Shown piece by piece: positions 42,583-49,067 of a stretch of DNA of 64,000 nucleotides (position 1 is the first letter of the stretch; each line of letters begins with the position of its first letter). The notes below the pieces were generated by a model. The model saw only the letters and a program-made list of their open reading frames with translations. It ran no database searches and was not told where the DNA came from. The translations under genes and the position numbers were made by a program. The stretch lies in assembly GCF_013315695.1 (NCBI RefSeq), contig NZ_CP054353.1; one strand, 5' to 3'. The DNA is from Escherichia coli (GTDB lineage: Bacteria > Pseudomonadota > Gammaproteobacteria > Enterobacterales > Enterobacteriaceae).

Positions 42583-45015
42583 ATGAGTGTGATTGCGCAG
42601 GCAGGGGCGAAAGGTCGTCAACTGCATAAATTTGGTGGCAGTAGTCTGGCTGATGTGAAGTGTTATTTGCGTGTCGCGGGCATTATGGCGGAGTACTCTC
42701 AGCCTGACGATATGATGGTGGTTTCCGCCGCCGGTAGCACCACTAACCAGTTGATTAACTGGTTGAAACTAAGCCAGACCGATCGTCTCTCTGCGCATCA
42801 GGTTCAACAAACGCTGCGTCGCTATCAGTGCGATCTGATTAGCGGCCTGTTACCCGCCGAAGAAGCCGATAGCCTTATTAGCGCTTTTATCAGCGATCTG
42901 GAGCGCCTGGCGGCGTTGCTCGACAGCGGTATTAACGACGCGGTGTATGCAGAAGTGGTGGGCCACGGTGAAGTGTGGTCGGCGCGCCTGATGTCTGCGG
43001 TACTTAATCAACAAGGGCTGCCAGCGGCCTGGCTTGATGCCCGCGAGTTTTTACGCGCTGAACGCGCTGCGCAACCGCAGGTTGATGAAGGGCTTTCTTA
43101 CCCGTTGCTGCAACAGCTACTGGTACAACATCCGGGCAAACGTCTGGTGGTGACCGGGTTTATCAGCCGTAACAACGCCGGTGAAACGGTGCTGCTGGGG
43201 CGTAACGGTTCCGACTATTCCGCGACACAAATCGGTGCGCTGGCGGGTGTTTCCCGCGTAACCATTTGGAGCGATGTCGCCGGGGTATACAGTGCCGACC
43301 CGCGTAAAGTGAAAGATGCCTGTCTGCTGCCATTGCTGCGTCTTGATGAAGCCAGTGAACTGGCGCGTCTGGCGGCCCCCGTTCTTCACGCCCGTACTTT
43401 ACAGCCAGTATCCGGTAGTGAAATCGACCTGCAACTGCGCTGTAGCTACACGCCGGATCAAGGTTCCACGCGCATTGAACGCGTGCTGGCCTCAGGTACT
43501 GGCGCGCGTATTGTCACCAGCCACGATGATGTCTGTTTGATTGAGTTTCAGGTGCCCGCCAGTCAGGATTTCAAACTGGCGCATAAAGAGATCGACCAGA
43601 TCCTGAAACGTGCTCAGGTGCGCCCACTGGCGGTTGGCGTACATAACGATCGCCAGTTGCTGCAATTTTGCTACACCTCAGAAGTCGCTGACAGTGCGCT
43701 GAAAATTCTCGACGAAGCGGGATTACCTGGCGAACTGCGCCTGCGTCAGGGGCTGGCGCTGGTGGCGATGGTTGGGGCGGGCGTAACCCGTAACCCGCTG
43801 CATTGCCACCGCTTCTGGCAGCAACTGAAAGGCCAGCCGGTCGAATTTACCTGGCAGTCCGATGACGGCATCAGCCTGGTGGCAGTACTGCGCACCGGGC
43901 CGACCGAAAGCCTGATTCAGGGTCTGCATCAGTCCGTCTTTCGCGCGGAAAAACGCATCGGCCTGGTATTGTTCGGCAAGGGCAATATCGGTTCCCGCTG
44001 GCTGGAACTGTTCGCCCGTGAGCAGAGCACGCTTTCGGCGCGTACCGGCTTTGAATTTGTGCTGGCAGGCGTGGTGGACAGCCGCCGCAGCCTGTTGAGC
44101 TATGACGGGCTGGACGCCAGCCGCGCGTTAGCCTTCTTCAACGATGAAGCGGTCGAGCAGGATGAAGAGTCGCTGTTCCTGTGGATGCGCGCCCATCCGT
44201 ATGATGATTTAGTGGTGCTGGACGTTACCGCCAGCCAGCAGCTTGCTGATCAGTATCTCGATTTTGCCAGCCACGGTTTCCACGTCATCAGCGCCAACAA
44301 ACTGGCGGGAGCCAGCGACAGCAATAAATATCGCCAGATCCACGACGCCTTCGAAAAAACCGGGCGTCACTGGCTGTACAATGCCACTGTCGGTGCGGGT
44401 TTGCCGATCAACCATACCGTGCGCGATCTGATCGACAGCGGCGATACCATTTTGTCGATCAGTGGGATCTTCTCTGGCACGCTCTCCTGGCTGTTCCTGC
44501 AATTCGACGGTAGCGTGCCGTTTACCGAGCTGGTGGATCAGGCGTGGCAGCAGGGCTTAACCGAGCCTGATCCGCGTGATGACCTTTCCGGCAAAGACGT
44601 GATGCGCAAGCTGGTGATTCTGGCGCGTGAAGCGGGTTACAACATTGAACCGGACCAGGTGCGTGTTGAATCACTGGTGCCAACCCATTGCGAAGGTGGA
44701 AGCATCGACCATTTCTTTGAAAATGGCGATGAACTTAATGAGCAGATGGTACAACGGTTGGAAGCGGCCCGTGAAATGGGGCTGGTGTTGCGCTACGTGG
44801 CGCGTTTCGATGCCAACGGCAAAGCGCGAGTAGGCGTGGAAGCGGTGCGAGAAGACCATCCGCTGGCATCACTACTACCGTGCGATAACGTCTTTGCCAT
44901 CGAAAGCCGCTGGTATCGCGACAACCCGCTGGTGATCCGCGGGCCAGGTGCAGGGCGCGATGTCACCGCCGGGGCGATTCAGTCGGATATTAACCGTCTG
45001 GCGCAGTTGTTGTAA
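42583..45015 (+). CDS. metL: Bifunctional aspartokinase II / homoserine dehydrogenase II
   Basis: 810-aa ORF directly after metB. Confidence 0.96.
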   Translation: MSVIAQAGAKGRQLHKFGGSSLADVKCYLRVAGIMAEYSQPDDMMVVSAAGSTTNQLINWLKLSQTDRLSAHQVQQTLRRYQCDLISGLLPAEEADSLISAFISDLERLAALLDSGINDAVYAEVVGHGEVWSARLMSAVLNQQGLPAAWLDAREFLRAERAAQPQVDEGLSYPLLQQLLVQHPGKRLVVTGFISRNNAGETVLLGRNGSDYSATQIGALAGVSRVTIWSDVAGVYSADPRKVKDACLLPLLRLDEASELARLAAPVLHARTLQPVSGSEIDLQLRCSYTPDQGSTRIERVLASGTGARIVTSHDDVCLIEFQVPASQDFKLAHKEIDQILKRAQVRPLAVGVHNDRQLLQFCYTSEVADSALKILDEAGLPGELRLRQGLALVAMVGAGVTRNPLHCHRFWQQLKGQPVEFTWQSDDGISLVAVLRTGPTESLIQGLHQSVFRAEKRIGLVLFGKGNIGSRWLELFAREQSTLSARTGFEFVLAGVVDSRRSLLSYDGLDASRALAFFNDEAVEQDEESLFLWMRAHPYDDLVVLDVTASQQLADQYLDFASHGFHVISANKLAGASDSNKYRQIHDAFEKTGRHWLYNATVGAGLPINHTVRDLIDSGDTILSISGIFSGTLSWLFLQFDGSVPFTELVDQAWQQGLTEPDPRDDLSGKDVMRKLVILAREAGYNIEPDQVRVESLVPTHCEGGSIDHFFENGDELNEQMVQRLEAAREMGLVLRYVARFDANGKARVGVEAVREDHPLASLLPCDNVFAIESRWYRDNPLVIRGPGAGRDVTAGAIQSDINRLAQLL

Positions 45016-46109
45016 TCCTGAGCCAGAGAAAGCAGTATTTGCGTAACGCGCCCTGCGGAAAGCGGGGTGCTGTGAGTAAATACTGCTTGTTTATGTAGCC
45101 AGTCGATAAAATGTCTGCTGGTTGCGAAAGAGAGCATTACAGCTTTGCTGTTATTTCCGCCCGTTAATGCACATACCATTTTACGATTTTTGCCCTGAAC
45201 CCAGAGTTGCCACTGATTTTTCCACCAGCCGTGATAAGTTTTTCCCTGAAAACGCCAGGGCGTATTATCGGTATAGTCAGCTATTTCCTCTTCAATAAAC
45301 CAAATTTCACCTTGCTGTTGGCGAAACAGTTCTGCCCAGGCCGTAATAATCGCACCTCTTAAAAAACACTCGTGTGAAATTACATGTGTTTTTACTGTAG
45401 GGAATAAAATATTCAGTACTCTAAAATGCCCGTGCGCTGTGATAACCGGACGCAGAATAACACCTTTAGCATTGCGTTTGAGCGCTGCGCTGCCATACTG
45501 AATTTCATCAAACTGACTGCGGCGTAGAAATTGTGCTTCGCGCATATCAACGCGTTGTACAATATTACTCTCGTGTAACTCTGGTTCTGCATTTCCTCTG
45601 TATCGATAATACAGACTTTCTCCAGCCTGATGCTGCGTGTAATTAGTAGAAAGATGAAGAATATTACCGCGAAGAGCATCAAAACTGATTAAAACATACA
45701 GTTTCTGCCCGCCGCTGGCTCCCTGAAATGGCACCAGAAGAGCAACCGTTTCGATTATTTCAGGAGGCGTTATTTCTTTCTGATATTGTTTAGGTGTCCA
45801 GACTTTTTTGCAGTTACGACATTGAATGCGTTGCGACCCCTGTGGATTGTGGCCATAACAAATCGTCTTTGTGCCATAACATACCGGGCAGAAATGACCT
45901 TTCTCAGTTGCAAAAGTAGATAAGTGAACTGACAACCAGTCACGAAATTGCTGTTCGTCAAACAACGGCGGGTAACTTCCACATGCCCGACAGTGCAGTG
46001 CCGGATAACCCAGTCGATAGTCTGGCCAGCTGTAATCTGTCGAAGTTGGCTGCCCTAAATTACGGCAACCAAACGACTTGCAGGCATTAATCGTAAACAG
46101 AGTCGACAT
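44979..46109 (-). CDS. Uncharacterized protein with two N-terminal CxxC...CxxC zinc-ribbon-like motifs; absent from the K-12 metL-metF junction
   Basis: 376-aa ORF; Cys pairs in CKSFGCRNLG ... CRACGS and CPVCYG ... CRNCKK; 3' end overlaps the metL 3' end by 37 bp (convergent); no confident family assignment. Confidence 0.5.
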   Translation of the reverse strand: MSTLFTINACKSFGCRNLGQPTSTDYSWPDYRLGYPALHCRACGSYPPLFDEQQFRDWLSVHLSTFATEKGHFCPVCYGTKTICYGHNPQGSQRIQCRNCKKVWTPKQYQKEITPPEIIETVALLVPFQGASGGQKLYVLISFDALRGNILHLSTNYTQHQAGESLYYRYRGNAEPELHESNIVQRVDMREAQFLRRSQFDEIQYGSAALKRNAKGVILRPVITAHGHFRVLNILFPTVKTHVISHECFLRGAIITAWAELFRQQQGEIWFIEEEIADYTDNTPWRFQGKTYHGWWKNQWQLWVQGKNRKMVCALTGGNNSKAVMLSFATSRHFIDWLHKQAVFTHSTPLSAGRVTQILLSLAQDYNNCARRLISD

Positions 46110-46235
46110 ATATCACCAACGATTTCACAAGGTCGTTGATTTTGTCCGGCAACGCTCCCTTGTGGATGTGATTGCTCTCACATAAATAATTCTTTCAGAA
46201 CGTAATGTAGCAATCCTTTATCTCACTGGAAGGGA

Positions 46236-47795
46236 TTGTTTATGAAAATTAAAATGCTTGCTGCGGGTATCGCATTAACACTGCCGTTTTGGGCTTGCGC
46301 CAAAGATGTCACCATCATTTATACCAACGACCTCCATGCACATGTAGAGCCTTATAAAGTGCCGTGGATTGCTGACGGTAAACGAGATATTGGCGGCTGG
46401 GCAAATATCACTACGCTTGTTAAACAAGAAAAAGCTAAAAACAAAGCGACCTGGTTTTTTGATGCGGGTGACTATTTTACCGGGCCGTATATCAGCAGCC
46501 TGACTAAAGGCAAGGCGATTATCGATATTATGAATACCATGCCATTCGATGCGGTCACTATAGGTAATCATGAATTTGATCACGGCTGGGACAATACGTT
46601 ATTACAGTTGAGTCAGGCAAAATTCCCGATTGTGCAGGGTAATGTTTTTTATCAGAACAGCAGTAAATCATTCTGGGATAAGCCCTATACCATCATTGAA
46701 AAAGACGGCGTGAAAATTGGCGTGATTGGTTTGCACGGTGTATTTGCCTTTAATGATACGGTATCTGCGGCAACGCGAGTGGGTATTGAGGCGCGTGATG
46801 AAATTAAATGGCTACAACGTTATATCGATGAACTCAAAGGCAAGGTTGATTTGACCGTTGCGCTGATTCACGAAGGTGTTCCGGCCCGCCAGTCCAGTAT
46901 GGGGGGCACAGATGTGCGCCGCGCACTGGATAAAGATATTCAGACGGCAAGTCAGGTGAAAGGGCTGGATATTTTGATCACCGGGCATGCACATGTGGGT
47001 ACGCCGGAACCGATTAAAGTCGGCAATACGCTCATCCTCTCCACTGACAGCGGTGGGATTGATGTCGGTAAACTGGTACTGGACTACAAAGAGAAGCCGC
47101 ATGATTTTACGGTGAAAAACTTCGAGCTTAAAACCATTTACGCCGACGAGTGGAAGCCCGATCCGCAAACAAAACAGGTGATCGACGGCTGGAATAAAAA
47201 GCTTGATGAAGTGGTGCAACAAACGGTCGCGCAATCGCCGGTTGAATTAAAACGTGCCTATGGTGAATCGGCTTCCCTCGGGAACCTGGCGGCTGATGCT
47301 TTACTGGTAGCGGCGGGTAAAAACACCCAATTGGCGTTAACCAACTCTGGCGGCATTCGCAATGAGATCCCCGCAGGGGCGATTACGATGGGCGGCGTCA
47401 TCAGTACCTTCCCGTTCCCCAACGAACTGGTGACGATGGAACTCACGGGTAAACAATTACGCAGTTTGATGGAACACGGCGCAAGTTTAAGTAATGGCGT
47501 TTTACAGGTATCGAAAGGCCTGGAAATGAAGTACGACAGCAGCAAACCGGTTGGTCAGCGGGTAATCACACTGACTCTGAATGGCAAACCCATTGAAGAT
47601 GCGACAGTTTATTCTATTGCCACCCAGAGTTTCCTTGCTGATGGTGGAGATGGTTTTACCGCCTTTACCGAAGGGAAAGCGCGTAACACAACGGGCGGTT
47701 ATTACGTTTATCACGCCGTGGTTGATTACTTCAAAGCGGGTAACACCATCACGGATGAACAGATCAACGGTATGCGCGTGAAAGATATCAAGTAA
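46236..47795 (+). CDS. Secreted bifunctional metallophosphatase / 5'-nucleotidase-like protein (UshA/CpdB family)
   Basis: 519-aa ORF; signal peptide [20 protein letters not shown]; calcineurin-like motifs DLHAH, GDYF, GNHEFD, GHAH; C-terminal 5'-nucleotidase-type motif NSGGIR. Confidence 0.7.
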
Positions 47796-48103
47796 AAGTA
47801 CGTATTGAGTTGATTCATTTGTTTGTTACCCGTTGATTTTGCAGATCCAGTATTCGGCCTACGCGAGGGCGCAGGCCGAATCAGATGCCTTAGCATCACC
47901 ATCCGGTGGCAGGACGTTGTTTTTCGAATAAGCCCAGGTGTCGCTGTGTTGTCAGAATATCAGTCAAAACGTGCGAGGTGGATTGCGCTATAGAGAAATC
48001 TTTTATCGCCTCTAATTAAGATGAGTTTTTTTCAACTTCCCTGATTTTTCCTCACCATCATTGGTCATTTTTCGGTTGACGCCCCTCGGCTTTTCCTTCA
48101 TCT

Positions 48104-48150
48104 TTACATCTGGACGTCTAAATGGATAGATGTTCACAACACAACATATA
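48104..48150 (+). promoter_or_regulatory. metF promoter met-box array
   Basis: acatctggacgtctaaatggatagatg contains GACGTCT-type repeats about 50 bp upstream of metF. Confidence 0.6.
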
Positions 48151-48173
48151 ACTACAAGCGATTGATGAGGTAA

Positions 48174-49067
<894 letters not shown>

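Follow-up and report, generated by a model that had tools for sequence, protein, structure and literature searches.

Introduction

Eukaryotes provide well-documented cases of DDE transposases turned into host regulators, cases that to our knowledge have rarely been documented in bacteria. Transposase-derived regulators include FHY3/FAR1, CENP-B and ZBED in eukaryotes and the TnpB-derived TldR repressors in bacteria, and InsA of the insertion sequence (IS) IS1 represses transcription by attaching to the ends of IS1. In the field of nucleoside catabolism, genes are controlled by CytR and CRP, and divergent regulator/operon pairs that share one CRP site are known, malI-malX being an example. Here, we describe a divergent gene pair located between metL and metF in a stretch of 64,000 nucleotides of Escherichia coli (contig NZ_CP054353.1 of assembly GCF_013315695.1; the whole stretch is referred to as the window). 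One gene, on the minus strand (44979..46109), encodes a zinc-ribbon protein of 376 amino acids (WP_000105527.1) to which we give the working name ZnR; the other, on the plus strand, encodes a periplasmic 5′-nucleotidase (5′-NT). We propose, with a probability of roughly 55%, that the pair is a conserved nucleotide- and nucleoside-scavenging module under CRP, in which ZnR, a domesticated transposase, acts as the local regulator.

Results

The preliminary description of this locus, made from the window alone, had reported a double zinc ribbon in ZnR, and the family data bear this out: the eight cysteines do not vary among close homologues and hardly vary in a family alignment of 55 sequences with 19–80% identity. 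Ribbon 1 (residues ~8–48, 45966..46088, minus strand; C10, C15, C40 and C43) is delimited by cysteine conservation and forms short beta hairpins in the AlphaFold2 model, and ribbon 2 (residues ~72–106, 45792..45896, minus strand; C74, C77, C97 and C100) is of the InsA/IS1 type according to profile matches. The C-terminal domain, previously left unassigned, can now be assigned by its fold. The model, built on the family alignment (predicted local distance difference test, pLDDT, 94.9; predicted template modelling score, pTM, 0.93), shows two small zinc-ribbon units parted by a long helix and then a beta-beta-beta-alpha-beta-alpha-beta-alpha core (residues ~117–263, 45321..45761, minus strand), which is the RNase H-like fold of DDE transposases and retroviral integrases. 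The core is followed by a four-stranded beta subdomain carrying a GWWxxxW motif (W295, W296 and W300) and by a helical tail (together residues 264–376, 44982..45320, minus strand). Besides the cysteines, R197, H228, W296, W300, Y168, N156 and P221 are conserved throughout the family alignment.

How is this family related to transposases? No significant whole-protein match to ZnR was obtained in Pfam, NCBIfam, PHROG or PADLOC, whose anti-phage defence models matched neither protein of the pair, and the transposase catalytic models of Pfam and NCBIfam did not match ZnR either. Residues 74–105 were the only part to give weak matches, to the IS1, IS1595 and InsA zinc-ribbon models; with NF050000, ZnR scores 21.3 bits, under the cut-off of 28, and homologues score 30–32 bits, over it, while Zn_ribbon_InsA matches 8 of the 55 family members. 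The comparison of the ZnR family profile with IS1 InsAB′ by hhalign was much stronger (probability 96.7%, E 3.6e-10), the InsAB′ query being a sequence that NF033558 recognises as IS1 transposase with 243 bits. The aligned region pairs ribbon 2 and the downstream part of the longer homologues with the InsA zinc finger and helix-turn-helix (HTH). In agreement with this, longer homologues match positions 1–85 of the IS1 transposase model (zinc ribbon and HTH), and a model of a long homologue has three helices between ribbon and core. On the strength of the InsA alignment, the matches to NF033558 positions 1–85 and the NF050000 scores above the cut-off in longer homologues, we conclude that the ZnR family possesses a complete transposase-like architecture in which a ribbon, an HTH and an RNase H-like core follow one another. 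The linker between ribbon and core is 10–11 amino acids long in a short enterobacterial subfamily (10 in the window ZnR) compared with 51–94 in all other members, and the short subfamily, the window ZnR included, has deleted the HTH.

The similarity to IS1 has limits. The hhalign comparison of the C-terminal part of ZnR with IS1 InsB was not significant (probability 0.3%), so that IS1 itself can be named only as a possible source of the core. With the IS1 whole-protein model NF033558, ZnR reaches 20.5 bits where the cut-off is 100, and only positions 1–48 are matched. Two other leads were followed without success. When PDB sequences were searched with the family profile, C2H2 zinc-finger arrays alone came back; these matches reflect a Cys-rich composition and have no bearing on homology. 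The HNH nuclease that had been read loosely into the CPVC...GHN...CRNC stretch did not hold up, since the Pfam GH-E match has an E value of 0.086 and H87 of the GHN triplet is H, Y or R in close homologues.

We infer the catalytic positions of the core from secondary-structure register. With this mapping, the first Asp would be expected in mid beta-1 (residues 118–127; T121), where 51 of the 55 sequences have Thr or Ser, the position expected after beta-4 (217–219; R220) is Arg or Lys, and the Glu expected on the helix after beta-5 corresponds to E247, acidic in 55/55. D144 and D201 never vary within the short enterobacterial subfamily; in the whole family these positions are acidic in 73% and 85% of members, respectively, and outside the short subfamily C, L, H, S, F and Y occur as substitutes. 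A canonical DDE triad, as far as it can be placed by register, is thus not conserved family-wide. One might argue that ZnR is nevertheless catalytically active, with nucleic acids or nucleotides in the cytoplasm as substrates, and serves the same salvage pathway as an RNase H-like nuclease, phosphotransferase or nucleotide-processing enzyme. The fold itself would suit such a role, as would the invariance of D144, D201 and E247 in the short subfamily and a group of His, Arg, Tyr and Trp positions that do not vary, and the loss of the HTH from the short form would fit a protein with no further need of sequence-specific DNA binding. We consider this explanation unlikely, because positions 144 and 201 vary across the family, the canonical first and second Asp positions are occupied by T/S and R/K, the zinc ribbons and the InsA homology point to DNA recognition, and ZnR stands outside the operon of the pathway genes in every case, as a monocistronic gene in divergent orientation.

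The evidence indicates that ZnR is no longer a transposase: it is single copy (the median is one place per genome), lacks transposon ends, is inherited vertically, is syntenic across genera and evolves under purifying selection, with a ratio of nonsynonymous to synonymous rates (dN/dS) of 0.09–0.19. Neither terminal inverted repeats nor direct repeats or a target-site duplication were found flanking the pair, and a mobile IS or islet bounded by terminal repeats was accordingly rejected. On the left, the junction directly follows the metL stop codon; on the right it lies at ~48015, where homology to the empty site resumes ~160 bp before metF. These data also bear on the idea that ZnR is a decaying, functionless IS remnant hitch-hiking beside a nucleotidase gene, for which the weak IS1/IS1595 zinc-ribbon matches, the name "IS1 family transposase" attached automatically to relatives in several databases and the occasional pseudogenes could be invoked. 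Full-length open reading frames (ORFs) at 25–98% identity in dozens of species, their dN/dS values, the single copy without terminal repeats and the recurrence of the nucleoside-gene linkage in unrelated neighbourhoods with different partners all oppose it, and we regard this very improbable explanation as effectively refuted by selection and synteny. Taken jointly, the InsA-type ribbon, the transposase fold, the domestication and the obligatory linkage to nucleotide and nucleoside genes are well supported, and we hold them to be highly probable.

Some observations concern the evolution of the ZnR gene itself. Its nonsynonymous rate is about 5-fold that of the partner (dN against C. freundii of 0.31 for ZnR and 0.06 for 5′-NT). 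The gene is broken or truncated in Kluyvera genomosp. 3 (locus L044, 7950–9145) and in S. enterica subsp. arizonae (locus L045, 7848–8525), and the neighbouring 5′-NT gene is split into two ORF fragments in the former and intact in the latter; these cases suggest that ZnR is occasionally lost. In the window, the last 37 bp of ZnR overlap the convergent metL (44979–45015). Right after the metL stop codon, within the 3′ coding region of ZnR, lies an inverted repeat of 27 nt (45030–45088), imperfect with 74% complementarity, which could be the metL terminator.

The most consistent property of the family is its genomic company. In a species-level scan with one genome per species and the closer alignment as query, 36 of 37 loci have a divergent 5′-nucleotidase gene directly upstream of ZnR, at a distance of ~130 bp, and the remaining locus ends at a contig edge; every informative locus examined therefore contains both gene families, and the lack of co-occurrence that would have refuted the preliminary description is decisively contradicted. 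When more distant relatives are included (~45 loci), ZnR proteins down to 25% identity adjoin, divergently, a 5′-nucleotidase gene or PNP, DeoB, NupC or NupG genes. At 35–40% identity the divergent neighbour is again a 5′-nucleotidase gene. At 25–30% identity, one homologue is divergent from NupC and a nucleoside phosphorylase, another from a phosphopentomutase (DeoB), a phosphorylase (PNP) and a NupG-type symporter, and that of Motilimonas from a phosphorylase, a phosphopentomutase and NupC. This variety of divergent partners links ZnR to nucleotide and nucleoside scavenging in general and not to one enzyme. In many loci a Tsx-type channel gene is also present, accompanied by between one and three extra nucleotidase paralogues, and the divergent ZnR/5′-NT pair is held in at least four distinct chromosomal neighbourhoods. 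In all these loci ZnR is monocistronic and divergent, never within the target operon, which is the arrangement of a local regulator gene beside its target operon, repeated across taxa. The pairing of a cytoplasmic zinc-ribbon protein with a periplasmic phosphoesterase, first described as having no obvious precedent, thus has a simple rationale.

An exhaustive profile search of 1.84 billion representative proteins identified only 148 clusters at 50% identity, ~60 of them full length, a low number that also speaks against an active IS, and a Foldseek search of AFDB50 placed the family in Enterobacterales, Vibrionaceae and a few Alteromonadales. Homologues named "cytoplasmic protein", the name by which ZnR goes elsewhere, occur in many Enteroba­cteriaceae; other automatic names in the databases are "InsA N-terminal domain protein", "IS1 family transposase" and, wrongly, "lactate dehydrogenase". 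A distant ZnR paralogue (24% identity, 414 amino acids, again called "cytoplasmic protein") is found in E. coli RHB23-SO-C02 (locus L052, 4378–7245) and is considered in the Discussion.

The 132 bp that separate the two genes (46110..46241) form a shared divergent control region with a mean column identity of 85% across five genera, a conservation seen even though synonymous sites are saturated across the same genera. It contains a perfect CRP consensus, TGTGA-N6-TCACA (46167..46182), which is the only perfect match in the 64-kb window, with 0.02 expected by chance; of 43 family loci, 35 have a CRP-like site, and the distant loci linked to nupC and deoB are among them. Two further elements are candidate operators. 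The dyad CCAACGA-N10-TCGTTG (46116..46138), 8–29 nt upstream of the ZnR start, is a candidate for autoregulation, and its general form CCAAC-N11-GTYG recurs in 35/43 loci, among them those with a 37%-identical ZnR. The invariant block CTTTCAGAACGTAAnGTAGC...CTGrAAGG (46192..46232) contains the inverted repeat CTTTCAG / CTGAAAG and spans a putative −10 element, TAATGT (46203–46208), the presumed transcription start and the Shine-Dalgarno sequence. Judged by these predicted promoters, the CRP site would be centred at about −40.5 for 5′-NT and about −42.5 for ZnR (putative −10 CAAAAT), a spacing that would correspond to a class II arrangement in both directions.

A cis-regulatory RNA (riboswitch or leader) in the spacer was also considered and rejected: an Rfam search of the spacer gave no relevant match and the 5′-NT leader RNA does not fold better than shuffled sequences (z = −1.5 and +0.26). 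The same results bear on the idea that ZnR is an accessory factor outside transcription, either a nucleoside or nucleotide sensor that works through contacts with proteins such as CRP, CytR or a transporter, or a post-transcriptional factor acting on the mRNA leader. A short form lacking the HTH, a conserved inverted repeat overlapping the 5′-NT leader and its Shine-Dalgarno, and a CRP site common to both promoters would all be compatible with such a function. Given the leader folds, the blank Rfam search and a descent from the DNA-binding N-terminus of a transposase, which favours DNA binding, we rate an accessory role of this kind as quite improbable.

The partner phosphoesterase is an ordinary, essentially known enzyme. 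Both ORFs proposed at the start were recovered, ZnR at 44979..46109 on the minus strand with its 376 amino acids and the phosphoesterase with its end at 47795; the start of the latter needed revision. In place of the TTG at 46236 (519 amino acids), which is not conserved, translation is assigned to the ATG at 46242 (46242..47795, plus strand; 517 amino acids), which is invariant in five genera, lies 6 nt after an equally invariant AAGGGA Shine-Dalgarno and is the start annotated by PGAP. With the phosphoesterase beginning there, the divergent spacer is 132 bp and not 126 bp. The calcineurin-like and 5′-nucleotidase C domains are present as proposed (Pfam Metallophos 4e-12, 5_nucleotid_C 5e-39), with the full set of metal-site motifs, and so is, by inspection only, a signal peptide of AxA type at the N-terminus (residues 1–20). 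In the Citrobacter homologue the cleavage site reads WASA|K and has no Cys, so the enzyme is not a lipoprotein. The PDB entries 3IVD/3IVE ("Nucleotidase") match residues 19–517 with 1114 bits and are essentially identical to the window protein, and a match that begins at residue 19 fits removal of the signal peptide. We take these entries to be a structural-genomics target with locus tag c4898 and bound pyrimidine nucleosides, in which case the ZnR gene would presumably be c4897 in CFT073. The enzyme is under strong purifying selection (dN/dS 0.02–0.04). It is not an UshA orthologue by NF007109 (151.6 bits, cut-off 600), it scores under every NCBIfam equivalog cut-off, and no published substrate range was found for it in the literature. 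A GC-rich hairpin with a 13-bp stem and no T-tract (47852..47881, plus strand), 57 bp after the 5′-NT stop codon, may be an atypical terminator or similar to a repetitive extragenic palindromic (REP) element.

The gene order in the window is yiiX-metJ-metB-metL-[hypothetical]-[metallophosphatase/5′-nucleotidase]-metF-katG. The region 44900–48200 is 100% identical in the AF3 isolate (NZ_OZ547117.1), and in a 100%-identical genome RefSeq calls the two genes hypothetical protein WP_000105527.1 and bifunctional metallophosphatase/5′-nucleotidase. The two-gene block is present, at a coverage of at least 80%, in 1837 of 5426 complete E. coli genomes (34%); in the pair-less genomes of K-12 type the metL-metF spacer measures 348 bp and has only the last ~160 bp upstream of metF in common with the island. 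Initially, the pair was taken for an insertion in a non-K-12 strain. This view is not borne out, as the same metL-metF site is occupied in at least 10 enterobacterial genera, among them Escherichia, Pseudocitrobacter, Citrobacter, Klebsiella, Kosakonia, Phytobacter, Superficieibacter, Kluyvera and Salmonella. Because the module holds an identical site in so many genera, it is most likely ancestral and would have been lost in the K-12-type lineages rather than gained here. Other positions are also used: one Klebsiella species has the module near ompC and dcm-vsr, and in Enterobacter, Pluralibacter, Silvania and Rahnella it lies at sites other than metL-metF. The empty spacer of E. coli SC492 (locus L002, 1617–1964), which is of K-12 type, holds an annotated hypothetical ORF of 44 amino acids and, by eye only, a candidate REP-type element.

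Several loci differ from the window in content. In E. coli HS13-1 (locus L003, 1434–8624) a larger island has the order metL-Tsx-5′NT-5′NT-ZnR><5′NT-metF; its ZnR is only 77% identical to that of the window and the adjacent 5′-NT 98%, a difference suggestive of recombination with a breakpoint close to the spacer that the two genes share. This island is the "GR 31" for which a nucleoside degradation and transport system has been proposed (PMC12928451), in an account that leaves the ZnR gene unmentioned. E. coli SCPM-O-B-8794 (loci L015 and L022) carries two modules, one at metL-metF and a second elsewhere with a 71% identical ZnR, four 5′-nucleotidase paralogues and a Tsx-like gene. In Salmonella enterica SR33 (locus L051, 4224–12776) the module is at metL-metF and an mscS-like and a hypothetical gene separate ZnR from metL. 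The SR33 record is listed in PLSDB as "plasmid unnamed1" and is evidently a chromosomal fragment, because it carries metJ, metB, metL, metF and katG. Plasmid carriage was accordingly rejected: both PLSDB matches examined are chromosome fragments labelled as plasmids, and three further records exceed 4.9 Mb.

Discussion

What would a transposase-derived protein do next to a periplasmic nucleotidase? A model of the potential function of the module can be outlined as follows. The Sec-exported 5′-nucleotidase would release nucleosides and phosphate from nucleotides, to which the inner membrane is impermeable; in the fuller islands, scavenging would also involve an outer-membrane nucleoside channel of Tsx type and between one and three nucleotidase paralogues. 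The 5′-NT gene is probably transcribed from a class II promoter dependent on cAMP-CRP and would consequently be induced under carbon limitation. ZnR, as a cytoplasmic and domesticated descendant of an IS1-like transposase with an extra ribbon, an InsA-type ribbon and an RNase H-like core, would be the pathway-specific transcription factor, binding one or both of the dyads (46116–46138 and 46192–46232) in the 132-bp region, much as InsA does at the ends of IS1 when it represses transcription. Its degenerate core and Trp-rich subdomain might serve effector sensing or oligomerisation.

Several points weigh against this proposal. The regulatory role of ZnR is deduced from gene order and descent. 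The ZnR of the window, with its 376 amino acids, is without the HTH that every longer homologue keeps, so that DNA binding would need the zinc ribbons or a partner such as CRP. The invariance of D144, D201 and E247 in the short enterobacterial subfamily may reflect a non-canonical active site, and the strictly conserved R197, H228, H246, E247, Y168, N156, W296 and W300 could equally form the active site of an enzyme. Finally, the paralogue of E. coli RHB23-SO-C02 does not have the divergent layout: its gene lies between mokC and nhaA and follows, in the same direction, a gene for a sulfatase-like hydrolase. Other exported hydrolases may therefore be partners within the wider ZnR family.

The island and its nucleotidase are already known from databases, from PDB and from one recent paper (PMC12928451), which is the only one found to mention the island; we found no paper describing the ZnR gene or its family. 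In annotations ZnR goes by nothing more than "hypothetical" or "cytoplasmic" protein, and its core has no family model. What appears to be new is the existence in Gammaproteobacteria of an IS1-like family, derived from a DDE fold, that is tied to nucleoside scavenging. Tentatively, and with more doubt than for the module itself, ZnR might be seen as the founding member of a group of bacterial transcription factors that arose by domestication of an IS1-like DDE transposase, in which a dead core and a Trp-rich subdomain sense nucleosides or nucleotides and which, together with cAMP-CRP, switch on scavenging in Enterobacterales and Vibrionales, including uropathogenic E. coli, Salmonella and Klebsiella. 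If this is true, a new class of regulator would stand beside CRP, CytR and DeoR in nucleoside catabolism, and bacteria would offer a clean model of the re-use of a transposase core. The family is well suited for such studies, being conserved, tied to one physiological function and present in genetically tractable pathogens, with the structure of the partner enzyme already solved. The module is variable in E. coli and is shared with extraintestinal pathogenic strains, and it may matter for growth on the breakdown products of host nucleic acids.

The comparison with known systems shows both what ZnR retains and what sets it apart. UshA/CD73-type 5′-nucleotidases resemble the partner in their Metallophos and 5_nucleotid_C domains, metal-site motifs and signal peptide, but the nearest family models of the partner are those of the 5′-nucleotidase half of YfkN-type enzymes and not UshA. 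IS1 InsA/InsAB′ shares with the ZnR family the CxxC...CxxC ribbon followed, in the longer members only, by an HTH. ZnR differs from it in having an extra N-terminal ribbon, ~150–250 more residues, a catalytic part that cannot be aligned to InsB and, in the window, a deleted HTH, as well as in being single copy and without terminal inverted repeats. With DDE transposases and integrases (the ISCth4/IS256 family, TnsB, Tn5, Mu and HIV integrase) ZnR has the RNase H-like fold in common, at 6–15% identity, while it is not mobile and, judged by register, has no family-wide DDE triad. The domesticated-transposase regulators are like ZnR in being single-copy host genes beside genes proposed as targets, a role that ZnR would have by inference; in the case of ZnR, the source would be an IS1-like DDE transposase, the hosts are Gammaproteobacteria and no guide RNA takes part. 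In layout, the module resembles malI-malX and the nucleoside genes governed by CytR and CRP, with which it shares a short divergent spacer, a single CRP site at about −41 in both directions (relative to predicted promoters) and targets in nucleoside catabolism, whereas ZnR does not belong to the LacI family and no CytR-type site was identified in the spacer.

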